Assembly (NCBI GenBank): GCA_020850355.1 | Contig: JADZEX010000091.1 | Location: 35,755 to 99,754, forward strand | DNA from: Fimbriimonadaceae bacterium | GTDB taxonomy: Bacteria; Armatimonadota; UBA10988 | DNA length: 64,000 bases | Direction: 5' to 3' | Shown here: positions 17,182 through 55,334 of the stretch, in pieces | Layout: each line of letters opens with the position of its first letter | Position numbering within the stretch: the first letter of the stretch is position 1 | The notes under the pieces: model-generated | What the model was told of the DNA's origin: nothing | Database searches by the model: none | What the model saw: only the letters and a program-made list of their open reading frames with translations | Position numbers and translations under genes: made by a program

Positions 17182-17338
17182 CCAACAGCTCCGATCGGCG
17201 GTCTGCGATGTGCCCATTGTAGCGCCACTGGCGGCGTCCAGGACCATTGGAGTCCTGCGGCGCTTGCCGCAAGCGGCCTGCAGGTGGCAAACTGTTACAC
17301 AGTGGGGAGGTGCCAGGCTGGTTTTGGGGAGGGCCACG

Positions 17339-25900: not shown

Positions 25901-26923
25901 CCGCTCGAGCTCGCCGGACTCGATCACCTCGGGCGGCATCAAGACATCGGCCGGCCGGTTGAGGATCTCGTCGGCGGTGTAACCGAAGACCTCGCGCGCG
26001 CCCTTGTTCCAGGAGCGCAGCCGGTTGTCGGTGTCGATCGTCATCACGGCTTCGGCCGTCTCGGTGACCGCGGCGCGCAGGTAGGCCGCTTCGCGCTCGG
26101 TCTCGGCCAGCGCCAGCGACTCTTGACTGGTGTCTCGCACGCTGACCTGGGCGACCTGCTGCTCCTCGTGCGGGACCATCGTGAGCTGCAGCATGACCTT
26201 GTGGATCTGCCCGTCGACGCCCTGGATCAGGACTTCGTCGAAGCGGCGCGAGCCCGCCACGGCGACCCGCCGCAGCGCTTCGCCGACCTCATCGCGCCGC
26301 GGCCCGACGACGAGGTCGGTGAACCGCGTGATGGCCAGTTGCTGCTGCGACAGGCCGGTCAGCTCGACCGCCTGGGCGTTGCAGAGCACGACGCAGCCGC
26401 TGCGCAGCTCGACCAGGTAGACCGCGTCGTAGGTGTTGTTGAGCAGGAAGCGGGTGAGCGCCTCGCTGTCGCGCAGCTTGCGCTCGTGGAAGGTGTAGTA
26501 GAACGAGTTGACGAGCACCCGGCTCTCGTCGATTTGCTCTTCGAGCAGATCGCAGACCGCGGCCCGGGGCTGGGTCTCGGGCAGTTGCTGCAGCGCGGCG
26601 CGGATCAGCAGCCGCTTGAGGATCCGCAGGCCCTTGCTGAGCAGCGCGTAGGGCACGCGCGCGTGATAGGCCTCTTCGGCGGCGATCGAAAGCTGCACCT
26701 CGGCCGCGGCGCGACCCGGACCTTCCAGGAGCTCCGGCAGCCGCGGCAGGAAGCCCATCAGGCCCTCGACCAGCCCGGCGCGGGCGACGCTGCCGAGCTC
26801 GGCCCCGAGCGTTTCGAGCGACGCGCGCCAGGTCGGTTCGAGTTGCTCCAAGACCCGGCTGACGCAGCCGGCGGCGGCCGCCCGGACCTCGTCTGTGTAG
26901 TGGCCGACACCCTCCTCGGTCAT
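22964..26923 (-). CDS. large multi-sensor (PAS/GAF) histidine kinase
   Basis: Track ORF, 1319 aa; H-box HVAHEIRNPLVSI, G-box GTGLGLAVSRKIVNDHGG; multiple PAS/GAF-like segments upstream. Confidence 0.85.
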   Translation of the reverse strand: MTEEGVGHYTDEVRAAAAGCVSRVLEQLEPTWRASLETLGAELGSVARAGLVEGLMGFLPRLPELLEGPGRAAAEVQLSIAAEEAYHARVPYALLSKGLRILKRLLIRAALQQLPETQPRAAVCDLLEEQIDESRVLVNSFYYTFHERKLRDSEALTRFLLNNTYDAVYLVELRSGCVVLCNAQAVELTGLSQQQLAITRFTDLVVGPRRDEVGEALRRVAVAGSRRFDEVLIQGVDGQIHKVMLQLTMVPHEEQQVAQVSVRDTSQESLALAETEREAAYLRAAVTETAEAVMTIDTDNRLRSWNKGAREVFGYTADEILNRPADVLMPPEVIESGELERLTRLVNERGFVRNFESVRLTKDGRRIDVEVTRTAIFDPHTGKRLGTSAVVRDISEKKRLEREAARKTRQLETMNRILAATSRIIDRDQTFRTIASQIEGLLPLDAMTVCLPEAEAERLRCRVLLGDAGLVVGSERLIDRDATLHGRALAAHRSLRIGDLTTLGNPGPDDIRLADLGFRSALISPLVYNAEAMGSLMLLHRRPEAYDEADRLQLDHLASHFAVILDNARRYEEERKRSAQFELISRVGAAAIANIGDAKRLMKSVVDTIQTDFGYYDVAVYEVAEEAQVFRLRAQAGHRRGALGESFEQPLAVGVFGEVLRTQTSYVANDVLLDPHYFDPSPVHRNVRSELCVPIRLGPQVFGVLDVESQRPNRFDRLDRAAMEALAGLLARCMEADESLRQTKMLQAMRHNIMEAVPSALILLDDDLRVKFVNRRYCEFFGQSVNEIMHRHASEVFPASLLEESRFFELVTRLQETQRPIDQREVRYFDFAGAERYADVRLRIVREYETSVIVMLHDATLRLKRLYQLSMLQDIGEEMQRTLDSERLLQAILTCVTAGPGFGFNRATLFLYDRERDRLVESLRVGPSSPAEAGEIWHQLGHKKSLREFLREYDRTRGARRPAREEARVVVPVAAEDDHLRRWRAPILLREGDEEDLALGAELRRFSGAAELLVVPLVSQESVLGLIVADNLFTRDPISRDSIRMLSTFANQAGVALANAQAFEKLETSIDELTRTQNKLAQAERLAGIGQVAAHVAHEIRNPLVSIGGFARMVGERADQPAYVRSRSAIIVKEVKRLEQILRNVADFTAPGKPELAWLSINDLVRDVISLQQPVFEDTQTTVGVTLADDLPQVEVDGGKIKQVVLNLVRNAVQAMAPGGQLTVHTGPSRDGKSLEIRVGDSGPGIPPDRLEEIFNPFFTNKADGTGLGLAVSRKIVNDHGGNLIAESRAGDGATFIIQLPLPEHGESAAEAEESTNGQ

Positions 26924-36552: not shown

Positions 36553-39363
36553 ATGGTGCTGGTCCGCAGCGGACGAACCCAGCTCTGCCGGGGCCTGTCC
36601 TGCGCCGCCGCCAGACTCGGTAGCGGCCTGGCCGTGGCACTGGTGTCGGGCTGCCTCCTTGAGCCAGCGGAGCCGCCCGCGCGGGCGGTGGAGTCTGTCC
36701 AGCCGCGAGGATCGCTGCGGGTGACGGTGAGTTGGGAGTTGCCTCCCGAGGTCAGCCCGCAGCTACAGCCAGTGCGAGTTGAGGTGCGGCTGACTGGCGA
36801 ACTGGCCAACCTGGAGGCCGAGCCGCTGGTGGAGCTGCCGGCAGGCCGTGGCCGCAGCGTGCGCGAACTGGGCGACCTGCCCGTTGGCTGCTACCATCTG
36901 GGTCTGACCGCCCACGGGCCGGCGGGCGCACTGGTCGCAGTGCACCGCGAGGTGTGGCTCAGCGCGGCGCGGCCCGTCGAGTTGGCCGCCACCCTCAGCT
37001 TCGGCGATCAGCGGCGGCCAACGGTGGCGCTGCTGCTGCCGGCGACGGTCCGTGTGGGGGAGTTGCTGGCCCTGACCGGCGCGGCCTGGCGGGACGGCCG
37101 GCCGTTGCCAGAGCTGCGCTGGCAGTGCAGCTCGGCCCAGCCGCCCTGGCCCTGCCCCACCGCCGTCGTGCCGGGGCACTGCTTCGAAGCTGCCGGCACG
37201 CCAGAAGTCCGGCTGTCGGCCGGCGGTCGCGCGGCCCGCACGAGTTGTGGCCTGCCGCTGGAGGTCGTTCCCGAGCACGTGCGGCTGGCCGGCTTCTCTG
37301 ACGCTGCCGGGCGCTGGCGGCCAACCGGGAATGTGTTTGGGGCCACCCGCCTCGCCGCGACCGCCGCCGGCGCGGTGCCGCCCGTACAGGTCGACTGCTA
37401 CCTCGACGGGCTTTGGCTGGGGCGGGCGACCACCCCCCAGGAGGGCCGCTACGACTGGCCCTACCAGGCGCCACCCAGCGGCGCTGGTGCGCACCACTTG
37501 CGGCTGCAGGCGACCTGCGCTGACGGCTCGGTGCTGTCCCACGAGGGCGGCTTCAGCGTCAGACCGACGGCGACCGCGCCGCCGGCCGCGCTGCAGGTGA
37601 GTCCCGCCAGGGTGTTGTTGCGGCCAGGGCAGCGCTGCCAGTTGCGCGCCAACCAGGCCGTGAACTGGCGCCTGATCGGCCCGGCGCCGGGCGGTGCGGT
37701 CACGCCACTGGGCGTCCTGGTGGCCCCAGCCATGCCTGGCGAGTACCGCGTCGAGGCACGGACGGCACCGGAACTGGCCGCCGCCGGTGATGGAGCGGAG
37801 ATGCGGCTGGTGCCAGCCGGGCCGTTCACCATGGGCAGTCCGACCGGGACCAGCGCAACCGACGAGAGTCCGTCGCGGCGGATCCAGCTCGCGGCCTATC
37901 GGATCCACCGCTACGAAGTCAGCAACCGCCAGTACGCGACCTTCCTGAACTCGCGCCGGCCGACGCAGCCAGAGCTGCAGCGCTGGATCGACCTGGGAGA
38001 GGGCGAGCAGACCCGGATCCAGCGGTTGGCGGGGCGGTACACGGTGGTCTCAGGATGGGAGCAGCACCCAGTGGTGCGTGTCTCTTGGTATGGCGCGCAA
38101 GCCTACGCAGAGCATTTCGGCCTACGGCTGCCGACTGAGGCGCAGTGGGAGAAGGCCGCCCGCGGGACCGCCGACCAGCGCACCTACCCTTGGGGTGACG
38201 ACCCGGCCGACGGTGAGTCGACGGCGGCCGACGGCGACTCGGGCGGATTGGACCTCACGACCACGCCAGTCGGCAGCCTGGCCCACGAGGTTAGCCCGTT
38301 GGGCGTGTGCGACATGGCCGGGAACGTCAGTGAGTGGTGTGCTGACTGGTATGCACCTGGGTGGTACCATCGCTTGCCCAGCCACGATCCACTGAACCGC
38401 CAACCGGGGCCCTACCGAGTTCACCGTGGTGGCACCTGGAAGCACCTGCAGCGGCAGCAGCGGATCACGCGCCGGAACGCCCGGACGGCCGGTTGCCAGG
38501 ACAGCACGCTGGGCTTCCGCTGTGTCGGCGATCCGATCGCGCCGCGCACGGCGGTGGTCCGAGTCGTCGTGGCCAGCCGGGCAGCGGTGCTACCGGCTGG
38601 CGCGGGCGACGGGGCGACGATGCTGCTGGTGCCGGCCGGGCCGTTCACGATGGGCAGCCCGCCCGGGGTCGGCGCGGCCGATGAGCGTCCCGCACGGCGC
38701 ATCAACCTGGCCGCCTTCCGGATCCACCGCCACGAAGTGACCACCGGGCAGTATGCGGCGTTCCTCAACCAGCGCCGGCCCACCGAGGGGGAGCTGCGGC
38801 GCTGGATCGACACCGCTGATCCCGACTTTCAGCGGGTCCATCGGTCCGGCGCGGCCTACCACGTGGCGGCCGGGTTCGAGAACCACCCGATGACTTTGGT
38901 CACCTGGTACGGCGCGCAGGCCTATGCCGAGCACTACGGCTTGCAGCTTCCGACCGAGGCCCAGTGGGAGAAGGCGGCGCGTGGCAGCAACGATGCCAGA
39001 CTGTACCCGTGGGGCAACCAGTGGGACCCCCAGCGTGCGAACAGCGCTGGCGTCGTCGGTGCCGACCAGTGGCCTGCCGCCGCCCCGGTGACCGCGTTCG
39101 CGGCCGGGGCGAGTCCTTACGGGGTACTCAACCTGGCGGGCAATGTCTGGGAGTGGTGCCGCGACCGGTACTGGAGTGGCTGGTACCGCCAGATGCCGAG
39201 CAACTCGCCAGTCAACGAATCGATCGGTCACTGCTTCGTGGCGCGCGGCGGTTCGTGGTTGTACGCGGCCGGACACCAGCGGGTCGCCGCCCGAATCCGC
39301 CGGATGCCGGACTGTCGGGACTACACCCTTGGGTTCCGATGCGTGGCGCCACCTGCAAGCTGA
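36553..39363 (+). CDS. lipoprotein with two tandem FGE-sulfatase (SUMF1/EgtB/PvdO-type) domains
   Basis: Track ORF; lipobox LVSGC; two copies of the FGE pattern (LVPAGPFTMGSP...LRLPTEAQWEKAARG...YPWG...GNVSEW / ...GNVWEW...RGGSW). Confidence 0.75.
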   Translation: MVLVRSGRTQLCRGLSCAAARLGSGLAVALVSGCLLEPAEPPARAVESVQPRGSLRVTVSWELPPEVSPQLQPVRVEVRLTGELANLEAEPLVELPAGRGRSVRELGDLPVGCYHLGLTAHGPAGALVAVHREVWLSAARPVELAATLSFGDQRRPTVALLLPATVRVGELLALTGAAWRDGRPLPELRWQCSSAQPPWPCPTAVVPGHCFEAAGTPEVRLSAGGRAARTSCGLPLEVVPEHVRLAGFSDAAGRWRPTGNVFGATRLAATAAGAVPPVQVDCYLDGLWLGRATTPQEGRYDWPYQAPPSGAGAHHLRLQATCADGSVLSHEGGFSVRPTATAPPAALQVSPARVLLRPGQRCQLRANQAVNWRLIGPAPGGAVTPLGVLVAPAMPGEYRVEARTAPELAAAGDGAEMRLVPAGPFTMGSPTGTSATDESPSRRIQLAAYRIHRYEVSNRQYATFLNSRRPTQPELQRWIDLGEGEQTRIQRLAGRYTVVSGWEQHPVVRVSWYGAQAYAEHFGLRLPTEAQWEKAARGTADQRTYPWGDDPADGESTAADGDSGGLDLTTTPVGSLAHEVSPLGVCDMAGNVSEWCADWYAPGWYHRLPSHDPLNRQPGPYRVHRGGTWKHLQRQQRITRRNARTAGCQDSTLGFRCVGDPIAPRTAVVRVVVASRAAVLPAGAGDGATMLLVPAGPFTMGSPPGVGAADERPARRINLAAFRIHRHEVTTGQYAAFLNQRRPTEGELRRWIDTADPDFQRVHRSGAAYHVAAGFENHPMTLVTWYGAQAYAEHYGLQLPTEAQWEKAARGSNDARLYPWGNQWDPQRANSAGVVGADQWPAAAPVTAFAAGASPYGVLNLAGNVWEWCRDRYWSGWYRQMPSNSPVNESIGHCFVARGGSWLYAAGHQRVAARIRRMPDCRDYTLGFRCVAPPAS

Positions 39364-39397: not shown

Positions 39398-40099
39398 TCA
39401 CCAGCAGTTGGCGCCCCAGCCCGGGACGGGTAGCTGGTGGTTGAGGGCGGCAAGGGGCGACCAGGAGACGTGGCCGTCCAGGTAGACGGAGTTGGCACCA
39501 ACGTCGTGGTGGGCGGGGGCGTGGCGGGCAGCGGTCTGGTAGACCCAGTCGTTGACCAGCACCACCGCGGCCGGGGGCCGGGAGTCGTCGCGACCGAGCG
39601 GGCCGCTGGCAGGGTCGGTCGCGGCGGTGCCCGGCGGGCAGTGGCCGGCCCAGAAGGCGTAGCCGGTGAAGTAGCGGCCGAGGCTGTCCGGCATCAGCGC
39701 AATCGCCTTGGAGTCCGATCCCGACTGCGAGAACTCAGCATGGCTGGTGACCCAGACGTTGGGGCAGTGCCAGGCCTGGCGGTCGCGGAGGTAGGGGTGC
39801 AAGACGCCGTAATACCAGCGCGGGCTGATGGTGTTGGGTGCCTCGGGTCCGCCGCCGTGGGCGACGTCTTCGGCGTTGCGTGGAAAGCGCTGGTCATAGT
39901 CGGCGGCGTACAGCAGGAGGGCGCGGCCGAGCTGGCCGAGGCGGACGGCGCAGACGGCGCGGCGGGCGTCTTCGTCAGGCGCCCGACCGTTGTGGCGCCA
40001 GAGCAGCCAGGTGCCCAGGAGCACCGGCAGCAGCAGCAGGGCCGTTGGCAGCAGGGAGACCTGGTGGGTGCGGCGAGGCTGCTCATGAGGTGGCTGCAT
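39398..40099 (-). CDS. H-X9-DG (DUF1559-like) protein
   Basis: Track ORF; C-terminal motif HHDVGANSVYLDGHV matches H-X9-DG; N-terminal hydrophobic segment but no canonical prepilin cleavage motif. Confidence 0.55.
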   Translation of the reverse strand: MQPPHEQPRRTHQVSLLPTALLLLPVLLGTWLLWRHNGRAPDEDARRAVCAVRLGQLGRALLLYAADYDQRFPRNAEDVAHGGGPEAPNTISPRWYYGVLHPYLRDRQAWHCPNVWVTSHAEFSQSGSDSKAIALMPDSLGRYFTGYAFWAGHCPPGTAATDPASGPLGRDDSRPPAAVVLVNDWVYQTAARHAPAHHDVGANSVYLDGHVSWSPLAALNHQLPVPGWGANCW

Positions 40100-40169
40100 C
40101 GGGGGCTGCTCCCTGCGCCCAACGGACTGGTCGATGTGCTAGGGTGACGCCTGGGAGGGGTGGCGGCCG

Positions 40170-43100
40170 ATGCGGTGGGAGTTCCAGTTACTCGGGGGCC
40201 TCGCGGCGCGCTGCGGCGAGCGGGAGGTGGCGGAGTTCCGGAGCAGCAAGGGGCGCGGCGTCCTGGCTCGGTTGCTGCTGCAAACCGGCGAGCGCCTGCG
40301 GCGGGCGGTGGTGGCCGCGGAGTTCTGGCCCGAGTCCGAAGCTCGCAGCGCCCTCAACTCGCTGACCACCGAACTCTCGAAACTCCGGCAGGCGCTGCAC
40401 TGCGACGCGGTTGAAGACCGGCGGCTGCTGCCGCCGGGGCAGCGCGAGATCTGGATCGACGCGGGCCTGGTCCGCACCGACCTGCAGGCGTTTGAGCAGA
40501 CGGTGGCCGAGTTCGACGCGTTGGGACGGCGGGGCGAGCCCGCCGAGCTGACCTTGGCACGGTTGCGGTTGTGCGGCGGAGAGCTGCTGCCAGAGCTCGA
40601 GGGTACCTGGCTGACCAGCCGCCGGACCGCTGTGCGGCAGGCCTGGCTGCGGCTGGCGGCCGGCGCGGCCGAAGGTCTGCGGAGCGCCGGACGGATGTCC
40701 GCCGCGGCGGCGTTGGCGCACCAGGCGGTGCAGTACTACCCGCTCGACGAACCGGCGCTGCGCTTCGCGATGCGGTTGCTCGCCGATCTGGGTGAGACGG
40801 CTGCCGCGTTGCGACAGTACGAAGCCCTGCGAGCCCGGCTGCACACGGGCTATGGCCTGGCTCCGGCGGCCGAGACCAGCGACCTGGCAGCCGACCTCGG
40901 CGCCGACCTGGCAGCCGGAGCCGACCAGCGCGCCGAGGAGCTGGCCGCGGCGGCGACTCAGCAGATCGCGCACGGCCGACTCCGAGCGGCCGAGCTGGGG
41001 CTCCGGCGGGCTCTCGTCACGGGTCTCCGAGGCCCGGCGGCAGCACAGGTACAGCGGCAACTGCGTGCCGTGTCGCGGGCGCTCCCGCCGGTGGTCTGGG
41101 AGCGCGCCACCGGGCGAACCGTGGTGGACGGTGTGGTGCGTCGCGACGGCGCGGTGCTGCTGTGCCACCCGGCCGGGAGGTGGTCGTGCTGGCGGACCGG
41201 GCAGGCAACACCAGTGGTCGAGGGCCAGTGTGGCGACGGCCTGGTCCTGGGGTCCTGGCTGGGCCGGTCCGCCGAGCTGGTGTTGGCGGCGGCCACCGGT
41301 GAGTTGCACTGGCAGTCGTTGGCGGCGTCGCGGCCCCGGGCCACGGCGCATGTCCCAGGGCCACCGCTGGCGCTGACCACCTCGCCGGACCGGCGCTGGG
41401 CGGCAGTCGGCCTGGAGCGCCACGGCGTAGTGCTGTGGGACCTGGCGCACGACGAGCTGTACGAACTGCCGGCGATCACACGAGCAGACTGCCTCGCCTT
41501 TGCGCCGAACGGGGCCCGACTGGCGGCCGGAGCCCGCAGCGGTGAGCTGACCGTCTGGGAGCTGGCGACCGGGCAGGCGGTGTGGCAGACCCAGCAGCCG
41601 GGCGCTGTGCGCGGGCTGGCCTGGTCGCCAGACGGGTTGTTGCTGGCCACGGCGGGCGGCGATCATCGGGCGCGGATCTGGCAGTGGGACGGCCGTGGTG
41701 GGGCCATGCAGGAGCTGCCACATGGGGACCGGGCAGTGCACGCCGTGGCCTGGCTGGCGCGCGGCGAGCGACTGGTCAGCGTAGCCGGCGACGGTCGTCT
41801 GCGGAGCTGGCCTGGGGCCACCGCGGCGGGCCAGGCGACGGTGGTCAGCCTGGGCGGCGACCTGACGCGGCTCTGGGGCCATCCAGATGGGCACCACGTG
41901 TTGGCGTTGACCGCGCATGGTGTCGCCCACCTGGTGGACCTGGCCGCGGAGCCGGCGGCGGACCTCGAGGCCGTGGGAGAGGGGCTCGCGGCAGTCGGCT
42001 TTGTCGGCACGCGGGGCGATCTGCTGTTGGTTGAGGCGGCCGGCAGTCTCCGACAACTCGACCTGATGGCCGCCGGACCGGACCGGGCGCTGCTGCATGC
42101 ATCCGGCTGCCACGTGGCGCGCGCCGTATGGTCGCCGGACGAGCAACGCCTGGTGACCGCCGGCACCGACGGCGGCGTGCGAGTCTGGAGCGCCGCCGGT
42201 CGACTGGAGCAGAGTTGGCAACTGGCCGAAGTGGTGCGCGAGGTGGTCTGGGACCAGTCCGGGGGCCTGCTGGCGCTGACCGCTGAGGGAGAGCTGGTGG
42301 CGCTGGCCCGGGACGGCCTGGCCCGCCGTGACCACCTGCCTGGAGCGCCGATGCGGCACCTCGAGCTGCGTCCGGCCGAAGGCCTGTTGCTGGCCGCCAG
42401 TGGCACTGCGGTGCGCTGGTGGAGCTGGCCGACCTTTCGCCTCCAAGGTGGCTTCGAGGTCGCCGGCCACTGCCGCGCGGTCGCCCTGTCGCCAGACGCC
42501 CGGGTGGTCTACGTGGCGGAACTGGGTGGCCGCGTGACCGCCCGGCGCCGGACGGGCGAGCTGCTGTGGGAGCGGGCGCTGGACCGGGCGCCGTGGCGCC
42601 TGGTGGTGACCGCGTCAGGTCTGCTCGTGGCCGGCACCTCGCCGGCGGTGCTGCTGGCAGCGGCCGACGGCGAACCGGTCGGGGCGGGCTGGCCGCATCC
42701 GGGCGAGTGCCACCAGGTCGCCCTTGACCCAGCCCAGAAACGTGTGGCGCTGACGACCAGCGCAGGGCCGGTCTTGGTGGTCGATCCGGCCCGGCCACAG
42801 CAGGCAGCGGTGGTGCTGGAACGCCGCCGATGGGGTCTGTGGAGCGAGTTCACGGCAGCCGGCACGCTGCTGGCCGCCGGCGACGATGGCGAGGTCCGGG
42901 AGTTCTGTACTGCCAGTGGCCGGCTCTTGGTCCCGCCCCGCCCGGTTCCGGCGCTGGTCCCCTTTCTGAGCCAGCGCCAGGCCGACGGCCAGATCACCGC
43001 CACCTGCGGCGATGGTCGCGTCTACTTCTGGCACGCTGCCGCCCACGGCCAGGCGGCGCCCGCGGCGGCGCCTGCGGCGACTCCCGTCGCACGCGCCGTT

Positions 43101-43796
43101 TGGCACGAGCGGCAGGCTGCCAACTGCGCCCAGGCCGGGTTGCCGGCTGGCGCGTGGTGGCATCTGCAGCGCGCGCTGCGAGCGCAGCCCACGGAGGCCT
43201 GGAACTGCTGGCAAGCCGCCCTGGCCGCCTGGGAGGTGGGCCGCCCGGATCGGACCGCAGCCCTGCTGCGCCGCGCCAGTGCCCTCACCAGCGATCCGCG
43301 CCCCGCGGCTGATGCGCTGCTGTTGGCTGCCTGGCGCGACGGTGCTGGGGCGGTCGCTCCCGCGGCCGAGCGGCTGCTCGCAACCGTGACAGCGCTGGGC
43401 CGCAGTCCGCTCGCCTGGCAGGCGCTCCGCCGCTGGCTGGTGATTGCCGAGTGGGCTGACCTGGTACGAGCACTGCCGGCAGACCTGCTGGAGAGCGCAC
43501 CGCACCTCGCTTCGGCGGCCCGGTTGGAGGTGCTGGCGGCCTGGCACCTGCGCTGTCAGCGGAATGTCCTGGCTGCCGCCACCATCGACCGGTGCTGGTC
43601 TGCCGCCCGCCATCAGCGCTCGCTCTGGGCGTCCGCGGTACGGGCCTTGGCGCTACAGCGCCTGGGCCGCTGCGAAGGTGGGCTAGCTGCCGAGCATGCC
43701 CGGGCCCTGGCCGTTGCGACCGCCAGCGATCCCGTCTGGCCGCACCGCATCGAGGCTGCCTGTTGGCAGCGCGAGCTGACGCTGGCCGGCGGCTGA
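40170..43796 (+). CDS. SARP-family (OmpR-type wHTH plus BTAD) regulator fused to WD40 repeats and C-terminal TPR-like region
   Basis: Track ORF, 1208 aa; GGGAGGGG upstream; N-terminal MRWEFQLLGGLAA...ALRFAMRLLADLGETAAALRQYEALRARL (BTAD); WD40 units (LATAGGDHRARIWQW, VTAGTDGGVRVWSA); no P-loop seen. Confidence 0.65.
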   Translation: MRWEFQLLGGLAARCGEREVAEFRSSKGRGVLARLLLQTGERLRRAVVAAEFWPESEARSALNSLTTELSKLRQALHCDAVEDRRLLPPGQREIWIDAGLVRTDLQAFEQTVAEFDALGRRGEPAELTLARLRLCGGELLPELEGTWLTSRRTAVRQAWLRLAAGAAEGLRSAGRMSAAAALAHQAVQYYPLDEPALRFAMRLLADLGETAAALRQYEALRARLHTGYGLAPAAETSDLAADLGADLAAGADQRAEELAAAATQQIAHGRLRAAELGLRRALVTGLRGPAAAQVQRQLRAVSRALPPVVWERATGRTVVDGVVRRDGAVLLCHPAGRWSCWRTGQATPVVEGQCGDGLVLGSWLGRSAELVLAAATGELHWQSLAASRPRATAHVPGPPLALTTSPDRRWAAVGLERHGVVLWDLAHDELYELPAITRADCLAFAPNGARLAAGARSGELTVWELATGQAVWQTQQPGAVRGLAWSPDGLLLATAGGDHRARIWQWDGRGGAMQELPHGDRAVHAVAWLARGERLVSVAGDGRLRSWPGATAAGQATVVSLGGDLTRLWGHPDGHHVLALTAHGVAHLVDLAAEPAADLEAVGEGLAAVGFVGTRGDLLLVEAAGSLRQLDLMAAGPDRALLHASGCHVARAVWSPDEQRLVTAGTDGGVRVWSAAGRLEQSWQLAEVVREVVWDQSGGLLALTAEGELVALARDGLARRDHLPGAPMRHLELRPAEGLLLAASGTAVRWWSWPTFRLQGGFEVAGHCRAVALSPDARVVYVAELGGRVTARRRTGELLWERALDRAPWRLVVTASGLLVAGTSPAVLLAAADGEPVGAGWPHPGECHQVALDPAQKRVALTTSAGPVLVVDPARPQQAAVVLERRRWGLWSEFTAAGTLLAAGDDGEVREFCTASGRLLVPPRPVPALVPFLSQRQADGQITATCGDGRVYFWHAAAHGQAAPAAAPAATPVARAVWHERQAANCAQAGLPAGAWWHLQRALRAQPTEAWNCWQAALAAWEVGRPDRTAALLRRASALTSDPRPAADALLLAAWRDGAGAVAPAAERLLATVTALGRSPLAWQALRRWLVIAEWADLVRALPADLLESAPHLASAARLEVLAAWHLRCQRNVLAAATIDRCWSAARHQRSLWASAVRALALQRLGRCEGGLAAEHARALAVATASDPVWPHRIEAACWQRELTLAGG

Positions 43797-43834: not shown

Positions 43835-43850
43835 GTTTCACGTGAAACAG
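43835..43850. repeat. single palindromic repeat GTTTCACGTGAAACAG between convergent genes
   Basis: Seen in sequence. Confidence 0.9.
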
Positions 43851-43857
43851 CCGATGC

Positions 43858-45753
43858 TCAGCCCGCCGGGCCGAAGTCCAGGGTCAGCCGCCGGGCGTCC
43901 TTTTGGATCTGCACCGTGGCGGCCCCGAAGTCGGCGCTCAGGAACGGGCTGTCGAAGGCCTTGGACGGGCGAAAGTCGACCGGCTGGCCGTCCACGCTGG
44001 GGGGCTGGCGCCAGGTGGTGTCGAGGGTGAGCGTGGTTTGGTGCAGGCGGCTGGTGTAGCGCAGCAGGCCGTCCGTCAGGTCCCACGGGTTGCCCACCAC
44101 GCTGGCCTGGAAGGCCGCCAGGTCGGCGCACTGCTCGCGGCGGGCGACCTCCAGGATCACCGGGCTGAACTCGTCGCCGCAGGCCAGCCAGTCGCCGAGG
44201 TCGAGGGCGGCGTCCGCTTCGTGGTGCTGCGCTTGAGAGTCCGGTTCCCAGGTGGTCGGCCCGCGCACCACCCGCACCGCGGCGTAGGCGCGCGGGGCGG
44301 TGACAAAGACCCAGCCGTCGCGCTCGACCCGCGGCAACGCGCGATCGAACCAGACGCGCCAGCCCTTGGCATTGCTCTCGCGGAGCCGTTGGGTCAGCAT
44401 CACGCCGCGGTGGACGACCGACCAGCTGGCGTTGTAGACGCTGCCCTTGGCCGGGCGCAGCGGCTGCGGGAAGATCCGGGCGGTGGGGTGGCCGGCGAAG
44501 ATCACCCCGTCCCAGCGGTTCTGGCTCGAGATGTTGGTCCAGCTTGCGGCGGGCTGTGCCGGCAGCAGACTCGCGCCGAGGAGGTAGTCGGGCGTGACGT
44601 AGCTGACGCGCCGGAGGCCGGCCGCGGGGTCCAGGGCGTAGACGCCCTGCGGGCTGTGGAACGGGTGGCCCGGTGGGGCGTAGTTCGGCAACGGCGCGTC
44701 GGCCGCGTGGGTCGCGGCCAGGCCGAGGCGGCGGCTGGTCGAGGTGTAGACGCCGCGGCCGGCCGGGTCGAGGGCCAGGTCTACCACCACCGGGTCGGGT
44801 CGCCAGAAGGTCGTGGCGCCGCACCAGTGGCCAGGGTGCTTGCTCTTGGCGGCGCCGAGGCCGAAGTGGTACCAGGGCAGGCCGTCGATGGAGCTGAGGG
44901 CGGTGGAGTTGCGGCCAGGGTAGCAGCGGTGGCGGCTGCCGCCGCGTTGGCCGTCGAACTGCTCGGTTGCCCAGTCGGCCCAGAAGAGGTTCAGGAGTTG
45001 GGCAAACTGCAGCCGCAGCCGCGGATCGGGCGCGAAGTCGGCCAGGTTGTACCAGCCGCCGAGGGTGTACTTGCCATAGTCGGAGTTGCACTCGACCAGC
45101 AACCCACCCGTGGCGCGGTGGCGGGCGAAGCGCAGGAAGTAGGCATCGAAGGCCGCCGCCATCGCCGCCGGGGTGGTGCCGTCGTCGTAGCGCCGGTCGC
45201 GGTAGGCCGGGCTGGCCGCGAACAGGTGGGCGGCGCCCCAGAAGCTGGACCAGGCCTGGGCGTGGTGGTTCTCGCTGCCCCAGACCCAGAGGTCGCGCTC
45301 CGGCAAGGTCATTTCGAGCCGACACCGCGGCGCTGCCCAGGTCCAGAGCAGCTCCAGGATCAGCGCCTCGGCGGTCGGACTGAGACGACCGGCGTAGTGC
45401 GGGCTGTCGCGGCCGAACAGGAAGACGAGCCGTTCCAAGAGGTAGGCGTGCCAGTGGAAGCCGCTCTCGCCGGTGCCGGCCATCGCGGGCAGCAGCTCAG
45501 CGCGGACCGCCTGCAGCCCGGCCTCGGCCTCGGCGGTGCGCTGGTTGAGCCAGTAGGCCGCCAGCGCAAAGCCCTCGTGCCGCCAGGCCCCGCTGCTGGG
45601 ATAGGGACTGGCCAACAGCGCGGTCAAGAGGGCCTGCCGCCGCTCCTGGGCGCCGGCGATCACGCGCTGCACCGCGGCGTCGTCGACCGCCAGGGCCGGT
45701 CCCGCCAGCAGCACCGCCAGCCAACCTACCCGGCGCAGGCATTCGCCAGCCAT
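43858..45753 (-). CDS. hypothetical secreted protein, possible polysaccharide-degrading enzyme
   Basis: ATG at 45753 with GGAGAG upstream; signal peptide MAGECLRRVGWLAVLLAGPALA; no confident family assignment. Confidence 0.45.
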   Translation of the reverse strand: MAGECLRRVGWLAVLLAGPALAVDDAAVQRVIAGAQERRQALLTALLASPYPSSGAWRHEGFALAAYWLNQRTAEAEAGLQAVRAELLPAMAGTGESGFHWHAYLLERLVFLFGRDSPHYAGRLSPTAEALILELLWTWAAPRCRLEMTLPERDLWVWGSENHHAQAWSSFWGAAHLFAASPAYRDRRYDDGTTPAAMAAAFDAYFLRFARHRATGGLLVECNSDYGKYTLGGWYNLADFAPDPRLRLQFAQLLNLFWADWATEQFDGQRGGSRHRCYPGRNSTALSSIDGLPWYHFGLGAAKSKHPGHWCGATTFWRPDPVVVDLALDPAGRGVYTSTSRRLGLAATHAADAPLPNYAPPGHPFHSPQGVYALDPAAGLRRVSYVTPDYLLGASLLPAQPAASWTNISSQNRWDGVIFAGHPTARIFPQPLRPAKGSVYNASWSVVHRGVMLTQRLRESNAKGWRVWFDRALPRVERDGWVFVTAPRAYAAVRVVRGPTTWEPDSQAQHHEADAALDLGDWLACGDEFSPVILEVARREQCADLAAFQASVVGNPWDLTDGLLRYTSRLHQTTLTLDTTWRQPPSVDGQPVDFRPSKAFDSPFLSADFGAATVQIQKDARRLTLDFGPAG

Positions 45754-45827
45754 CGCCGCTCTCCGCGCACCGCGTTCGCGTCCGCCCGGCCAGTCCCTCC
45801 CGGCGGTGCGCGCCGCGCCCGCGCGCG

Positions 45828-45944
45828 GTGTTTCACGTGAAACAGCGGTCCGCGTGGTCGGCCGGCTCGCGATGCTGCGGGGTGTTTCACGTGAAACAGT
45901 GCGCCCCACGCCGGCCGCGGTGCCGCGTGTTTCACGTGAAACAG
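45828..45944. repeat. array of 3 palindromic repeats GTGTTTCACGTGAAACAG at 45828, 45882, 45927
   Basis: Seen in sequence in divergent intergenic region. Confidence 0.9.
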
Positions 45945-45992
45945 CAGGGATCCCAGCCGCGCGGCCGAAGCAGCGGGCACTGGAGGACCGCC

Positions 45993-47975
45993 ATGCTGCG
46001 GCTACTCGTCGTGCTCGCCCTCACTGGTTGCTGTGCCACTGCCGCGGTCGACCAGGCTGCCATCGACGATGTCCTGGCAGGCCGGCGTAAGGAAGCCAAG
46101 GCCTCCTGGTGGGGCTTCGACGCGGCCGACTCGACCAAGGCCTTGCAGGCCGCGATCTCCAGCGGTGTGCCGAAGCTGGTGGTCGACAAGGTCGGTGCGA
46201 CCTGGTTCACCGAGCCGCTGCAACTGGTCAGCAACCAGGAGATCACCTTCGAGCCGGGAGTGGTGGTGCAAGCCAAGCGCGGCAGCTTCCAGGGCACCGG
46301 CGACTCCCTCCTGACGGCGGTGCGCTGCGAGAACGTCAGCCTGAAGGGTCCCGGGGCGACGCTCAAGATGTGGCGCAGCGACTACGCCGCCGCGCCCTAC
46401 AAGAAGGCCGAGTGGCGCCACGTGGTGTTCCTCCGAAGCTGCCGCAACATCTGGATCGAGGGCCTCACGCTGGCCGAGTCCGGCGGCGATGGGATCTACC
46501 TCGGCACGACCGGCGACGGCACCTGGAACAAGGACATCACGATTCGGCAGGTGATCTGCGACCGCAACTACCGTCAGGGGATCAGCGTGATCTGCTCTGA
46601 AAACCTGCTGATCGAGGACACCATCCTCCGCGACACCGCCGGCACCGCGCCGCAAGCTGGGATCGACTTCGAGCCGAACCACGCCAACGAGCCCCTGATC
46701 AACTGCGTCATGCGGCGCTGCACCACCCAGGGCAACCGCGGCGGCGGGTACGCCGCCTACCTCAACAACCAGACGGCCGCCACCCCGCCGCTGGGACTGC
46801 GCCTGGAGGACTGCCGCTCGATCGACGATGCCACCTATGGCTTCTTCTACAGCGCGGGCGGCACGCCGGCCAGCTCCGTGCGCGGCGGCTTCGAGCTGAT
46901 CCGCTGCACCTTCGAACGACCAGGCGGCTCCGCGATCCTGATCACCAACAAGCCCGCCGCCGCTGGCGCCGCGCGGCTGGTCGGGTGTCGAGTGGTCCAA
47001 CCCGCGGCCGGCCACCCCGAACTGCCGCCGGTGTTGCTCTCCGCCGGCGCCGACTCGGGCGAGCCCCACGGCAACATCGACTTCGGCGAGCTGACCATCG
47101 AAGATGACGTCGACCGGCAGCCGATCCGGTTCAACGACTCCTCGGGCGATGCCAGTCTGGTCGACCTCCGGGGCACGTTCATCGTCGTCCGCGGCGGCCA
47201 GACGCAGCGCTTCCCGCTGACCAAGGAGCAGGTCACCGCCTGGATGCCGGTCTTCGAGATTCGCCAGTTGCCGCGCCTCAATCTGGCGCAACTGCGCCTG
47301 GAGCCGACCGGTCCCGCGCCCGTCCCGGCCGCCGGCGCCCTGCAATATGCCCGCCAGCGGCGCGTCGGGCGCTGGCTGCTCTGGGCTGCCGCGGGCGAAA
47401 CCGTCCGGCTGGCGCTGCACTACCTGCAGGTGGGCAGCTACGACGGGCCGGCCACGCCGCTGCAGGTGCTGGGACCCGACGGCAAGCCGGTCCACCAGAC
47501 CTCCGCGGCCTTCAAAGCGGTCACCGAGACCAGCTTCACGGCCGTGGCCAGCGGCCTCTACCAGGTGCAGTTCGACGCCGCAGGCAACCAGGCCGCGCTC
47601 GCTTCGAGCACCCACCGCCTGTTCCTCAACGCCGATGGCACGGCCGTCTGGCTGATCGGCAGCACCGGGGAGTTGTGGTTCTGGGTGCCCCAGGGCACCC
47701 GGCAGTTCGACCTGCGGGTCCGCGGCTCCGGGCCCCGCGAGGCCGTCCGGGCCCTGCTCTACAACAGCGCCGGCAACCTGGTCAAGGAGTACGACGACAT
47801 CACCACGGTCGCCCAGTTTGAGGTGGACCTCCCCGCACCGTCGGCCGGCGAGGCCTGGCGAGTCGTGCTCCAGAAGCCGAGCCACAGCTCGATGGAGGAC
47901 TTCTACCTGGAGCTCCGCGGGATCCCGTCGCTGTTTGGTGCCACCCGCGAGGCCCTGCTCCGTCCGGCCCGCTAA
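45993..47975 (+). CDS. secreted right-handed parallel beta-helix protein (pectate-lyase-like fold)
   Basis: ATG at 45993 preceded by GGAGGA; signal peptide; repeated segments such as IWIEGLTLAESGGDGIYLG and LIEDTILRDTAG. Confidence 0.6.
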   Translation: MLRLLVVLALTGCCATAAVDQAAIDDVLAGRRKEAKASWWGFDAADSTKALQAAISSGVPKLVVDKVGATWFTEPLQLVSNQEITFEPGVVVQAKRGSFQGTGDSLLTAVRCENVSLKGPGATLKMWRSDYAAAPYKKAEWRHVVFLRSCRNIWIEGLTLAESGGDGIYLGTTGDGTWNKDITIRQVICDRNYRQGISVICSENLLIEDTILRDTAGTAPQAGIDFEPNHANEPLINCVMRRCTTQGNRGGGYAAYLNNQTAATPPLGLRLEDCRSIDDATYGFFYSAGGTPASSVRGGFELIRCTFERPGGSAILITNKPAAAGAARLVGCRVVQPAAGHPELPPVLLSAGADSGEPHGNIDFGELTIEDDVDRQPIRFNDSSGDASLVDLRGTFIVVRGGQTQRFPLTKEQVTAWMPVFEIRQLPRLNLAQLRLEPTGPAPVPAAGALQYARQRRVGRWLLWAAAGETVRLALHYLQVGSYDGPATPLQVLGPDGKPVHQTSAAFKAVTETSFTAVASGLYQVQFDAAGNQAALASSTHRLFLNADGTAVWLIGSTGELWFWVPQGTRQFDLRVRGSGPREAVRALLYNSAGNLVKEYDDITTVAQFEVDLPAPSAGEAWRVVLQKPSHSSMEDFYLELRGIPSLFGATREALLRPAR

Positions 47976-51673: not shown

Positions 51674-51769
51674 TTCGGACAACCGCCTAAGTCGTCCGCA
51701 AGATGAGTGGTGAGCCGATCCATGCGGCTACCGGGAGCGCGCGCCTCCCGGATTGGGAGGTCTCCGGCG

Positions 51770-53962
51770 ATGCGTTCGGTCCGCGCCACAACCTGGGCAG
51801 TGCTGGCGGTGCTCGCGGCCGGAGTCCGGGTCCACGGCCAGGGCGCCAGTCGGCCGGTCTACTTCGTGCGCGACGTCGCGCCGATCTTCGACCGCGAGTC
51901 GTGCAGCTCGTCGCCCTGCCACGGCAAGTTCGGCGGCGGCCAGGGCCGGCTGCAGCTCTCCCTGATGACGCTCTCCCCGGAGGCCGACTTCGCTGGGCTG
52001 GAGCCGCTGATCGATCTCCAGAACCCCGCCAACAGCGTGCTGTTGCAGAAGCCCAGCGGCAAGTCGCCACACGCTGGTGGGCGGCGCTTCCGGGAGAATG
52101 CCAAGGAGTACCAGACGATTCTGCGCTGGATCCAGGAAGGCTGCCGCAACCCGACTCGCGAGCCGCTGCCGGTGCGGCTGCGGGTGACTCCGGAGCGCTT
52201 CAACTTCACGCCCGACAAGAACCAGGGCCGGATTCAGGTCACCGCCGAGTTCGCCGATGGGTCGGCCGAGGACGTCACGGACCGCACCCGGTTCATCAGC
52301 CCGGACGAGGAACAGGTCGAAGTGACTCCGGCGGGCTACGTCACGATGCAGCGCTGGGGCCTGACCAACGTCGTCTGCCGCTACGTTGGGCTGACCAAGG
52401 CGGTGTTCATCTCGCTGCCGCGCCCCAAGACCGCTGCCGACCCGGCCCCGCCGAAGGTGGCCGCGGGCAACCTGGTCGACGCGCTGGTCCACAAGAACCT
52501 CGAGTGGCTGAACATCAACCCGGCTCCGCGCTGCGACGACTACACCTTCCTGCGGCGGATCTACCTTGACCTGGTCGGGGCCCTGCCCGATCCGGCGACG
52601 ATTCGGGCGTTTGTGAAGGACCCCGATCCGAGCAAGCGGGCGAAGCTGGTGGACCAGTTGCTGGACGACCCGCGGTTCGTCGCGATGCGCACGCTGCGGC
52701 TCGGGGACATGCTGCGGATCAACCCGCGCAAGCTGGCCAATGGTCCGTTGCAGGCCCGCGCGGCGATGATCTTCGACGACTGGCTGCGCCGCAGCGTGCG
52801 CGACAACAAGCCGTTCAACAAGCTGACCCACGAGCTGGTCAACGCCCGCGGCTCGACGATGCTCAACGGCCCGGCCAACTTCTACCGCGTCGAGCGCTCG
52901 CCAGAGAACCGCGCCGAGACGATCGGGCAGGCTTTTCTGGGCGTGCGCCTGAGCTGCGCACGCTGCCATAACCATCCCTTCGACCGCTGGAACACCGACG
53001 ACTACTGGGAGTTCGCGGCGTTTCTGGCAAAGATCCGCGAGCGCGGCGCCGAGCTGTTTGACGACCGCGAGCTGTACGTCGACAACAAGGCCCAGCTTCG
53101 CAACCAGGCGGTGACCAGCAAGAAGAAGGGCCAGGTGGCGGTGCCGACCTTCCTCGGCGGACCGAGCCTGCCGCAGGAGCAGTTCCAGGGCGACTACCTG
53201 CAGGCGCTGGCCGACTGGATCACCAACGACGACAACCCGTACTACGGCAAGGCCACCGTGAACCGCGTCTGGTCGCACTTCCTGGGCCGCGGGGTGGTGA
53301 CGCCGGTCGACGACATTCGCGAGACCAGCGTCGCCGCGGTGCCGGCGTTGTTGACGCTGTTGGCGCAGGAGTTCCGCCGCACCGGCTACGACACGAAGCA
53401 GTTGATCCGCCTGATCGTGACCAGCGAGACCTACCAGCGGTCCAGCAGCAGCGACACCACCAACGAGCTGGACAACCGCTTCTTCAGCCACTTCCAGCCG
53501 AAGCAGATGCTGGCGCAAGTGTTGCTGGACGCCATCAACACGGCCTGCGGCACCTGGGACCAGTACGCCAGCTTCCCACGAGGGACCACCGCGGTGGAGC
53601 TGCCGCTGATGGTCAACAACGACTTCCTGGACCGCTTCGGACGCAGCAACCGGGAGTTTCTGGCGACGCTCGACCCGCACGCCGAGCCGACCATGCCGCA
53701 GACGCTGCATCTGATCAACTCCGGGTACATCAACGGCAAGATCACCTCGCGCGAGGGAACCGTGGCGACCCTCGAACCGCAGCTTCGGGACGACCGCGTG
53801 CTGGTCGAAGAGCTCTACCTGCGGACCCTCTGCCGCCCGCCGAGCGCTGGCGAGCTGGAGCAGGTCCTGGGATACCTTAAGAAGATCCCAAACCGCCGCG
53901 AGGCGTTCGAGGATCTCCTGTGGGCGCTGATCAGCTCGCGGGAGTTTGTGTTCATCAGTTAG
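51770..53962 (+). CDS. DUF1549/DUF1553 domain protein (Planctomycete PSD1-type), secreted
   Basis: ATG at 51770 after GGGAGG; signal peptide; motif SCARCHNHPFDRW typical of DUF1549; N-terminal Cys-rich segment. Confidence 0.7.
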   Translation: MRSVRATTWAVLAVLAAGVRVHGQGASRPVYFVRDVAPIFDRESCSSSPCHGKFGGGQGRLQLSLMTLSPEADFAGLEPLIDLQNPANSVLLQKPSGKSPHAGGRRFRENAKEYQTILRWIQEGCRNPTREPLPVRLRVTPERFNFTPDKNQGRIQVTAEFADGSAEDVTDRTRFISPDEEQVEVTPAGYVTMQRWGLTNVVCRYVGLTKAVFISLPRPKTAADPAPPKVAAGNLVDALVHKNLEWLNINPAPRCDDYTFLRRIYLDLVGALPDPATIRAFVKDPDPSKRAKLVDQLLDDPRFVAMRTLRLGDMLRINPRKLANGPLQARAAMIFDDWLRRSVRDNKPFNKLTHELVNARGSTMLNGPANFYRVERSPENRAETIGQAFLGVRLSCARCHNHPFDRWNTDDYWEFAAFLAKIRERGAELFDDRELYVDNKAQLRNQAVTSKKKGQVAVPTFLGGPSLPQEQFQGDYLQALADWITNDDNPYYGKATVNRVWSHFLGRGVVTPVDDIRETSVAAVPALLTLLAQEFRRTGYDTKQLIRLIVTSETYQRSSSSDTTNELDNRFFSHFQPKQMLAQVLLDAINTACGTWDQYASFPRGTTAVELPLMVNNDFLDRFGRSNREFLATLDPHAEPTMPQTLHLINSGYINGKITSREGTVATLEPQLRDDRVLVEELYLRTLCRPPSAGELEQVLGYLKKIPNRREAFEDLLWALISSREFVFIS

Positions 53963-53984
53963 GCCCGACCAAGGGAGCCCCACA

Positions 53985-55334
53985 ATGCCCATCGACGAGA
54001 CCGGGATCCATACCGACTACTGCGACGGCCACGCCCGGCGCGATGTGCTGAAGGCTGGCGTGCTGGGGATGTTCGGCCTCAGCCTGAGCGGCTTCCTGCA
54101 GGCCCAGGCGGCGCAGGCCCAGACCGCTGCGGCGGGCGAGGCCGCGGCTGCCACCGCGCCGCGCGGCAAAGCCGACGCCTGCATCTTGCTGTTCCTGGCC
54201 GGCGGCCCGTCGCACCTCGATAGCTGGGACCCCAAGCCGAGCGCGCCCGAGGAAGTGCGCGGCAGCTTCAAGACCGTCGCCACGAAGCTGCCGGGGGTGC
54301 AGTTTGGGGAGCACATGACGCGCTGCGCGCAGATCGCCGGGGACCTCACGGTGATCCGCTCGATGACCTCGAAGGAGGCCGACCACGAGCGCGGGACGCA
54401 CTACCTGATGACCGGCTATCCGCCGCTCCCCGGCTTCGGGGTGCCGGCGGTGGGCAGTGTCGTCTCGAAGCTGCTGCCGTCCCGCAGCGTGCTGCCGCCG
54501 TACATCGCGGTGCCCAGCCCGGTGCAGTACGGCGGCGCTGGCTTCCTGGGCGCCGCGCTGGACCCCTTCAGCCCTGGCGGCGACCCCAGCAATCCGGGCT
54601 TCCGGGTGCGCGACCTGGCGCCCGAAGGCGGGCTGAGCATCGAACGGGTGGACCGCCGACAGTCCTTGCGGCAGGCGGTTGATGCCAGCTTCGCGCGGCA
54701 CGAGAAGTCGTCCGACGCGGCGCGAGCGGTCGATGAGTTCTACAAGTCGGCCTACGGGCTGATTTCCTCCAGCGAGGCCCGTGCAGCCTTCGACGTCGCC
54801 AAAGAGCCAGACGCCATGAAGGACCTCTATGGGCGCAACAGCCTGGGGCAGTCGTGCCTCCTGGCGCGCCGCCTGGTGCAGGCGGGGGTGCGCTTCGTGA
54901 CGGTCCAGAACGGCGGCTGGGACACCCACAACAACGGCTTCCAGGCGCTTGCCGGCAAGCTGCCGCCGCTCGACCAGGCGGTCGCGGCGCTGGTCACCGA
55001 TCTGAAGCAGCAGGGCATGTTGGAGCGGACGATGGTGCTGGTGATGGGCGAGTTCGGGCGCACCCCGCGGGTCAACCCGCAGGGCGGCCGCGACCACTAC
55101 CCGCAGTGCTTCAGCGTGGTGGCGGCCGGCGGTGGCTGGCAGCGCGGGGCGGTGGTCGGCTCGTCCGACGCGACCGGCGCCAATGTTGCCGAGCGCGGCG
55201 TCAAGCCGGAGGACCTCACGGCGACCGTCTACACGCTGCTGGGAATCGATCCCGACAGCGACCTCCACTCGCCCGAGGGCATCCGAATCGTGCTCAGCCG
55301 CGGCGGCGTCGCCGTGCGGGAGGCGCTGGCGTGA
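53985..55334 (+). CDS. DUF1501 domain protein (sulfatase-like fold, Tat signal; PSD2-type)
   Basis: ATG at 53985 after AGGGAG; twin-arginine-like RRDVLKAGVLG; DUF1501-like motifs (DSWDPK, TVQNGGWDTH). Confidence 0.75.
   Translation: MPIDETGIHTDYCDGHARRDVLKAGVLGMFGLSLSGFLQAQAAQAQTAAAGEAAAATAPRGKADACILLFLAGGPSHLDSWDPKPSAPEEVRGSFKTVATKLPGVQFGEHMTRCAQIAGDLTVIRSMTSKEADHERGTHYLMTGYPPLPGFGVPAVGSVVSKLLPSRSVLPPYIAVPSPVQYGGAGFLGAALDPFSPGGDPSNPGFRVRDLAPEGGLSIERVDRRQSLRQAVDASFARHEKSSDAARAVDEFYKSAYGLISSSEARAAFDVAKEPDAMKDLYGRNSLGQSCLLARRLVQAGVRFVTVQNGGWDTHNNGFQALAGKLPPLDQAVAALVTDLKQQGMLERTMVLVMGEFGRTPRVNPQGGRDHYPQCFSVVAAGGGWQRGAVVGSSDATGANVAERGVKPEDLTATVYTLLGIDPDSDLHSPEGIRIVLSRGGVAVREALA

Follow-up and report, generated by a model that had tools for sequence, protein, structure and literature searches.

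We analyzed a 64,000-nucleotide stretch of the 178-kb contig JADZEX010000091.1 (hereafter the window), from the metagenome-assembled genome (MAG) of a Fimbriimonadaceae bacterium belonging to the Armatimonadota, and focused on a single gene located at 40170..43796 (+). This gene encodes a protein of 1208 amino acids, hereafter named the SARP-WD40 protein, in which a DNA-binding head of the SARP family is followed by a WD40 array and by a C-terminal tail predicted to be helical. The NTPase that separates head and propellers in its closest relatives is absent. The SARP-WD40 protein is genuine but stands isolated, as a domain-shuffling variant within a known class of regulators. As for its function, we see about an even chance that it is a one-component transcription factor of the SARP type, cytoplasmic and gated by its propellers and tail, and an NTPase-less derivative of a SARP/helix-turn-helix (HTH)-nSTAND1-WD40 lineage with a new tail. 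A preliminary description of the locus had read the protein as an OmpR-type winged helix and a bacterial transcriptional activator domain (BTAD), followed by WD40 repeats and a TPR-like tail, with no NTPase module. Most of this domain assignment held, as detailed below.

A SARP head joined to WD40 repeats without an NTPase

The head comprises an OmpR-type winged-helix DNA-binding domain (residues 1-100; 40170..40469, +) and a BTAD (residues 103-250; 40476..40919, +). The BTAD was recognized by PF03704 over residues 103-241, with 51.9-55.3 bits for a cut-off of 22.1, and it corresponds to helices at residues 104-264 of the AlphaFold2 (AF2) model. To place the whole head, residues 1-265 were aligned with SARP segments taken from five matches (six sequences, 25-32% identity). 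A profile built from the five other SARPs, with the query left out, scored 108.8 bits over query residues 4-250. When the query was included, the profile retrieved EmbR (2fez, 1e-50) and AfsR (8hvr and 8k60, about 1e-43) end to end from the PDB sequences; a direct phmmer search with the head against the same sequences gave nothing useful, and only the profile found these matches. The AF2 model of the head, obtained with the SARP alignment as input, had a mean predicted local distance difference test score (pLDDT) of 87.5 and a predicted template modelling score (pTM) of 0.77. In a Foldseek comparison of this model with the PDB, the only strong matches were AfsR (8k60/8hvr) and EmbR (2fez), with template modelling (TM) scores of 0.71-0.76 over 248-253 columns and 20-22% identity. 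By profile and predicted structure, residues 1-250 are a true SARP module, the winged helix being confirmed by both approaches despite a low Pfam score. The domain searches and structure prediction proposed as a check in the preliminary description therefore returned an N-terminal region that scores as SARP.

The head is followed by an Ala/Arg-rich linker of about 55 residues (residues 251-305; 40920..41084, +), which is the whole distance between the BTAD and the first blade. In the relatives, this position is occupied by an nSTAND1 NTPase of about 400 residues. Neither a Walker A motif nor the sequence GK[ST] was found anywhere in the 1208 residues, and Pfam scans of the protein detected no NTPase family. 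With all filters switched off, an nSTAND1 profile built from 75 matches scored -9.4 bits. The NTPase module is thus absent, as already suggested. Since this NTPase defines the AfsR-type and nSTAND1 STAND classes and was tested for with a negative outcome, the SARP-WD40 protein belongs to neither of them.

Residues ~306-975 (41085..43094, +) form a degenerate WD40 array of about 14-16 blades, probably arranged in two propellers. PF00400 matched with 82.8-85 bits for a cut-off of 27, and many other beta-propeller Pfam families matched residues ~400-810. The WD40 assignment is therefore secure, with only 4-7 blades recognizable by sequence: a blade profile made from idealised repeats of the relatives detected four blades clearly and three weakly. 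Manual parsing and spacing gave 14-16 blades, from residue ~306 to residue ~975. In the low-confidence AF2 model of residues 296-1208, the part ending at residue ~955 was predicted to contain about 55 strands (roughly 14 blades), and residues 976-1206 to form 12 helices. Foldseek searches with the propeller model retrieved tandem double-propeller proteins (UTP-type, 2ymu and Apaf-1) with E ~1e-24 but a TM score of ~0.24; these matches back the presence of two propellers in a generic sense only.

The last part of the protein is an orphan all-alpha tail (residues 976-1208; 43095..43793, +), rich in Ala (28%) and Trp (6%), for which 12 helices were predicted with low confidence (pLDDT mostly 30-70). 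The helical nature announced by the label "TPR-like" is thus supported by prediction, but TPR repeats were not recognized: residues 901-1208 matched no TPR or other Pfam family at E<=10, and a phmmer search of the tail against PDB sequences gave no match. An exhaustive phmmer search of residues 891-1208 against 1.84 billion representative proteins returned the protein itself and eight short, marginal, low-complexity matches (E of at least 5e-6). The sole TPR-like signal in the protein sits within the BTAD (TPR_19, residues 171-223, E 0.022). Judging from the model, the tail is best described as an orphan all-alpha domain, "TPR-like" being a loose and unproven label.

The gene is a continuous coding sequence

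The open reading frames (ORFs) reported for the locus, one of 1208 codons at 40170..43796 (+) and a divergent one of 233 codons at 39398..40099 (-), were exact in coordinates and size. The translation of the former gives a 100% self-match and is identical to the MAG protein IT204_24770, annotated "hypothetical protein" in NCBI. The ORF begins with an ATG, preceded at 11 nt by GGGAGG (40153..40158, +), a likely ribosome-binding site as read from the sequence. The start codon is credible since the N-terminus MRWEFQLLGG aligns with the starts of other SARPs.

The GC content of the window is 70-74%. Along the 3.6 kb of the gene, GC content was lowest at second codon positions (GC2) and reached 0.78-0.91 at third positions (GC3) in each 300-nt window examined, and a codon-position GC filter selected both 40170..43796 and 39398..40099 as genes. 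The GC2/GC3 pattern is uniform in all 300-nt windows, which indicates that there is no frame change at the junction between the SARP and WD40 parts. This bears on whether the gene could be an assembly or annotation artefact, either because a small SARP gene and a WD40 gene were wrongly joined into a chimera or because the assembly collapsed and the NTPase was lost. The origin of the sequence in a MAG and the unique architecture are compatible with an artefact. We nevertheless consider it very improbable, since the frame is continuous, GC and codon patterns are uniform across the junction, no repeats flanking the junction were found in a repeat search of the locus, the linker is unique sequence, and an in-frame chimera over 3.6 kb is itself improbable.

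In this window, an intact ORF counts for less than it usually would, because a GC content of 72% gives ORFs of about 750 codons even on the antisense strand. Spurious antisense ORFs of 750-760 codons arise there by chance. One ORF of 760 codons lies antisense inside the SARP-WD40 gene (40188-42470, -); it lacks a coding-type GC pattern and was not picked by the GC filter.

Relatives and probable origin

In a full-length homology search, only the self-match covered the whole protein, and all other matches covered at most 53% of the query, through the WD40 region. The best matches were mostly proteins of ~1300 amino acids composed of an XRE-type HTH, nSTAND1 and WD40 repeats, sharing 27-32% identity with the query over 450-640 residues of the propeller region. 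Besides the query, only three proteins among the 120 matches listed (P0033, P0060 and P0087) combine BTAD and WD40, and all three carry nSTAND1 (338-407 bits) between these modules, at residues ~282-716. A search with the head returned three weak relatives, the best with 59 bits and 33% identity.

The three SARP-nSTAND1-WD40 proteins (~1480-1510 amino acids, named [quoted passage not shown] in JGI), together with the XRE-HTH-nSTAND1-WD40 family, have the closest architecture to that of the query. Like the query, they possess an N-terminal DNA-binding head (a SARP in these three), a C-terminal WD40 array of ~14 blades and a cap motif. They differ by the ~400-residue P-loop NTPase between head and propellers, of which the query keeps no trace in its 55-residue linker. 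Moreover, their blades are near-identical and the proteins end ~27 residues past the cap motif, whereas the blades of the query are degenerate and are followed by 210 residues of orphan helical tail.

BLAST alignments of the propeller region reach the extreme C-terminus of the nSTAND1-WD40 proteins, which finish with a conserved cap containing AALCADVGPPTKADW. Directly past its last blade, the query carries the post-propeller cap motif ANCAQAGLPAGAWW (residues 984-997; 43119..43160, +), common to the C-terminal ends of HTH/SARP-nSTAND1-WD40 proteins. The query contains a single instance of the corresponding pattern, A.CA..G.P..[AE].W, and 55 of 119 WD40 matches contain it as well, at a median distance of 27 residues from the C-terminal end; it was absent from all 120 SARP-profile matches and appeared in one of 20,000 shuffles of the query. 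Since the pattern was defined post hoc from the alignment, it is supportive rather than decisive. Both the best propeller matches and the shared cap motif point to the nSTAND1-WD40 lineage, and the propeller module, probably with the whole gene, appears to descend from SARP/HTH-nSTAND1-WD40 proteins through loss of the NTPase and gain of the tail.

The preliminary description had proposed to look at the distribution of this fusion in related genomes. No other case with the same architecture came to light in GTDB genomes, JGI metagenomes or protein searches, whether these were made with the full-length protein, with its N-terminal part or with the SARP profile (the last listed only proteins of at most 481 amino acids and is unusable as an architecture census). 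The window contains no paralogue, and a literature search for the combination of SARP, BTAD and WD40 found no paper. A direct fusion of a SARP head to a propeller does have a parallel in three proteins of ~470 amino acids (P0165, P0172 and P0195), in which a winged helix and BTAD are followed after ~100 residues by beta-propeller-like repeats, with no NTPase detected. Their repeats are YncE/Vgb-lyase-like, sub-threshold and about 100-200 residues long; they are not WD40 and are not followed by a helical tail, and one of the sequences is flagged partial.

The nSTAND1-WD40 family has been assigned to conflict systems (PMC10907252), and the relationship of the propellers to this family raises the question of whether the SARP-WD40 protein could be an NTPase-independent, NLR-like immunity sensor, in which the propellers would recognize an invader protein and the SARP head would turn on defence. 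We regard this as very improbable. The query lacks the NTPase, and its blades are degenerate compared with the near-identical repeats typical of the family. PADLOC gave a WD40-level match to a candidate model only (HEAT-ARM_XIII, 44.6 bits, residues 368-552) and no match on the neighbours, and no effector or defence genes are located nearby.

Proposed function and comparison with known regulators

A role as one-component regulator is the most economical reading of an architecture that combines a SARP head with propellers and lacks an NTPase. In the proposed mechanism, which follows that of AfsR, the winged helix and BTAD would attach to DNA beside a promoter and bring RNA polymerase to it. Regulation or sensing would fall to the double WD40 propeller of ~670 residues and the helical tail of 230 residues, which would bind a protein or a ligand and mask or unmask the SARP head without a nucleotide switch. 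The most likely targets would be the divergent gene described below and the SARP-WD40 gene itself, through autoregulation.

AfsR of Streptomyces coelicolor, a large SARP with the organization winged helix-BTAD-NOD-TPR (PDB 8k60, 8hvr and 8jke), has the same head fold and a C-terminal repeat region. Bound to tandem repeats that overlap the -35 element, two of its SARP protomers provide a surface for the docking of sigma region 4, and the C-terminal NOD/TPR part inhibits the SARP domain, the relief of this inhibition requiring ATP (PMC10936776). AfsR differs from the SARP-WD40 protein by its NOD ATPase and TPRs, in place of which the query has WD40 repeats, no NTPase and no recognizable TPR. It also comes from another phylum, and the two heads share about 22% identity. 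In EmbR of Mycobacterium tuberculosis (winged helix-BTAD-FHA; PDB 2fez/2ff4), a SARP head is joined to a protein-protein interaction module without an NTPase, as in the query, which makes it the best functional analogy. The module of EmbR is an FHA phosphopeptide reader in a protein of 388 amino acids, whereas the query carries about 900 residues of propellers and helical tail instead, and Pfam scans detected no FHA domain in it. The inhibition exerted by the NOD/TPR part of AfsR and the SARP-FHA organization of EmbR are precedents that make gating of the SARP head by C-terminal modules plausible. The core formed by the OmpR-type DNA-binding domain and the BTAD is common to the small, medium and large SARP classes (PMC12692060). 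By size the query would be a "large" SARP, but it lacks the NTPase, a recognizable TPR and the biosynthetic gene cluster; by its domains it belongs to the SARP family, outside the small, medium and large classes of actinomycetes.

Several observations weigh against this regulator and its proposed descent. The scenario of NTPase loss rests on the identity of the best matches and on one short motif chosen after the fact. Domain scores are well under those of the relatives (BTAD, 52 vs 80-170 bits; WD40, 83 vs 280-425 bits) and, together with an extreme composition (20% Ala, 14% Leu, 10% Arg and 3 Lys only), they fit relaxed constraint. Searches of GTDB species genomes and JGI metagenomes, with the head as well as with the tail, brought up no orthologue; as neither orthologue nor paralogue was found, purifying selection and conservation cannot serve as arguments for function. 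The AF2 model of residues 296-1208 is poor (pLDDT 55, pTM 0.44), too poor for propeller geometry and tail fold to be defined from it. Finally, a search for a direct-repeat box (11/22 nt; 40060-40210) gave none above chance. Of the earlier proposal of a one-component regulator that senses through protein-protein interaction, the regulator itself is retained as the most economical reading, with AfsR and EmbR as precedents. The support is partial: no direct-repeat box stood out from chance in the divergent region, the tail is no recognizable TPR, and there is no orthologue through which conservation could be invoked.

Two further points against the regulator concern the head. The Pfam profile Trans_reg_C scored 18.6 bits on the winged helix, under its cut-off of 26.2. 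In addition, several positions that contact DNA in AfsR have changed. The DNA-contact residues of AfsR include Q48, W74, P79, T88, R94 and K95 (PMC10936776), and we compared the AfsR residues given in that study with those of the query, the alignment register being set by the invariant Trp. W53 (W74), T67 (T88), S70 (S91) and R73 (R94) are kept and K71 replaces R92, while K27 (Q48), A58 (P79), T66 (R87) and Q74 (K95) are changed. With this mixture of kept and changed residues, DNA binding by the head is plausible but not assured. The same data bear on the alternative of a non-transcriptional scaffold, in which the SARP-like head would no longer bind DNA and the protein would make protein-protein contacts through BTAD/TPR-like helices, propellers and tail. 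The sub-threshold winged helix and the changed contact positions are in line with such a scaffold, as is the wing region, the weakest part of the head model (pLDDT 70-76 at residues 71-90). We find it distinctly improbable, given that the head keeps both its fold and the core residues of the recognition helix. To our knowledge, no SARP module has been documented as a scaffold that does not bind DNA.

The main rival to the one-component regulator is a decaying relic: a SARP-nSTAND1-WD40 STAND gene whose NTPase was deleted and which would now drift without function under GC pressure, its ORF surviving only through the scarcity of stop codons at 72% GC. We judge this unlikely, but a good part of the evidence is compatible with it. 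The protein is a singleton without orthologue, its domain scores are weak, most of its blades are unrecognizable and its composition is extreme; it ends in an orphan Ala/Trp-rich tail, long antisense ORFs arise by chance in the window, and GC3 is slightly lower in this gene (0.84) than in its neighbours (about 0.90). On the other hand, its 1208 codons exceed the longest spurious ORFs of the window, codon-position GC is coding-like over the full length and a ribosome-binding site (GGGAGG) is present. The key residues of the recognition helix are kept as well, and the AF2 model of the head is confident.

If the SARP-WD40 protein is functional as a regulator, it would mean that the SARP activation module works outside Actinomycetota, and that coupling a SARP head to a large propeller sensor does not require the STAND ATPase believed to transmit the signal in AfsR- and nSTAND1-type relatives. 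It would also offer a simple natural test case for the gating of a SARP head by C-terminal repeats. These implications carry limited weight, as they rest on one gene from a single MAG, for which neither orthologues nor a target could be identified and whose sequence shows signs of decay.

Divergent gene and genomic context

The SARP-WD40 gene is separated by a 70-bp intergenic region (40100..40169, between the two start codons, as read from the sequence) from the divergent gene at 39398..40099 (-). Each of the two genes is monocistronic, and they have this gap in common. The divergent gene encodes an atypical DUF1559/H-X9-DG-like protein of 233 amino acids. The distance of 70 bp given previously is exact, and the H-X9-DG motif is literally present as HDVGANSVYLDG at residues 198-209 (39473-39508); the family assignment stays just sub-threshold. 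PF07596 (DUF1559) scored 23.2 bits for a cut-off of 23.3 and covered profile positions 5-66 of 268 only, and TIGR04294 (C-terminal H-X9-DG) scored 14.6 bits for a cut-off of 19. The protein has an N-terminal hydrophobic helix at residues 13-34; neither the prepilin cleavage motif G-[FMY]-[TS]-[LI]-[ILV]-E nor a match to the Pfam N_methyl family was found in it. A scan of the locus for sigma-70-like promoters and terminators gave no candidates, and Rfam and tRNA scans returned nothing relevant.

Upstream, on the plus strand, are a gene encoding a DUF4962 and heparinase II/III-like protein and a gene for a 936-amino-acid protein (36553-39363, +) with two FGE-sulfatase (formylglycine-generating enzyme-like) domains, which scored 383 bits. 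The tandem organization of these domains is reflected in a 220-nt DNA duplication (37773-37992 and 38592-38811, 77% identity). Farther upstream, on the minus strand, are genes for a 1200-amino-acid DUF5060/GH2_N-like protein and a GH57 protein. The polysaccharide-degradation neighbourhood reported for the gene is roughly right, considering the heparinase II/III-like, DUF5060/GH2_N-like and double FGE-sulfatase-domain proteins upstream and the beta-helix protein downstream; the GH57 gene, which is grouped with glgC-like and GalT-like genes, looks like a glycogen metabolism gene. Downstream are a convergent gene (-) encoding a 683-amino-acid protein without Pfam family, a gene for a beta-helix protein and CbiM/Q/O genes. 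Beyond these genes, the window is chromosomal DNA of mixed content, neither a biosynthetic nor a defence island. SARPs are usually found in actinomycete hosts and associated with biosynthetic clusters, although this setting is not strictly defining; it is unmatched in this Fimbriimonadaceae MAG, where the neighbours are carbohydrate-active-enzyme-like, FGE-sulfatase and cobalt-transport genes.

A bolder form of the regulatory reading would link the protein to this neighbourhood. The SARP-WD40 protein would be a "switchless" descendant of SARP-nSTAND1-WD40 proteins, in which a double propeller and a novel helical domain gate a sigma-adaptation-type SARP activator without nucleotide hydrolysis, and it would control a divergent, pseudopilin-like H-X9-DG surface protein in a polysaccharide-foraging neighbourhood. 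We consider this version doubtful.

A dispersed palindrome and other features of the window

A 14-nt palindrome, GTTTCACGTGAAAC, is present in 19 perfect copies in the window, where 0.03 are expected. The copies are found at seven intergenic sites at gene boundaries, as six clusters of three and one single copy. The clustered copies start at 3904, 3948 and 4001; 8438, 8484 and 8529; 19306, 19348 and 19412; 30311, 30366 and 30408; 45830, 45884 and 45929; and 58235, 58329 and 58353, each extending over 13 further nucleotides, with a spacing within clusters of 24-94 nt (mostly 42-64). The single copy (43835..43848) lies 39 nt past the stop codon of the SARP-WD40 gene, in the convergent gap, and has no extended stem. 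The flanks vary from copy to copy; with bases that differ, they often bring the palindrome to a length of 16-28 nt (GCGCTG..CAGCGC or CCGGTG..CACCGG), and the extended copies form strong hairpins (z -3 to -5). No Rfam family matched these elements, which look like a REP-like or uptake-sequence-like dispersed family. The palindromes had been put forward as possible binding targets of the SARP-WD40 protein. This is unlikely, as they form a dispersed family of REP-like hairpins, whereas SARP winged helices bind tandem direct repeats. At 45828-45942, the ORFs 43858..45909 (-) and 45828..47975 (+) overlap and cover three copies of GTTTCACGTGAAAC; their true starts probably lie inside the ORFs, in which case a divergent intergenic region with a triple repeat would remain between the two genes.

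Other observations were made along the window. The only other large signalling protein is a 1319-amino-acid histidine kinase with multiple PAS/GAF domains (22964-26923, -), and no adjoining response regulator was seen among the ORFs scanned. An ORF of 1135 codons (60086-63493, -), Ala-rich and with a GC content of 0.86 at first codon positions, had a weak TPR_17 match only; it is essentially unannotatable and is not similar to the SARP-WD40 protein. At 51707-55334 (+), a planctomycete-type gene pair, PSCyt2/PSD1 (DUF1549/DUF1553) followed by DUF1501, is present in this Armatimonadota MAG. After it comes a large ORF (54854-58219) that bears a cytochrome c motif and the start of which is probably internal. 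Two proteins with PD40 (TolB-like) beta-propellers, encoded at 13417-15423 (+) and 17210-19252 (+), have unusual N-termini, namely a retropepsin-like aspartyl protease and a NERD nuclease-related domain.

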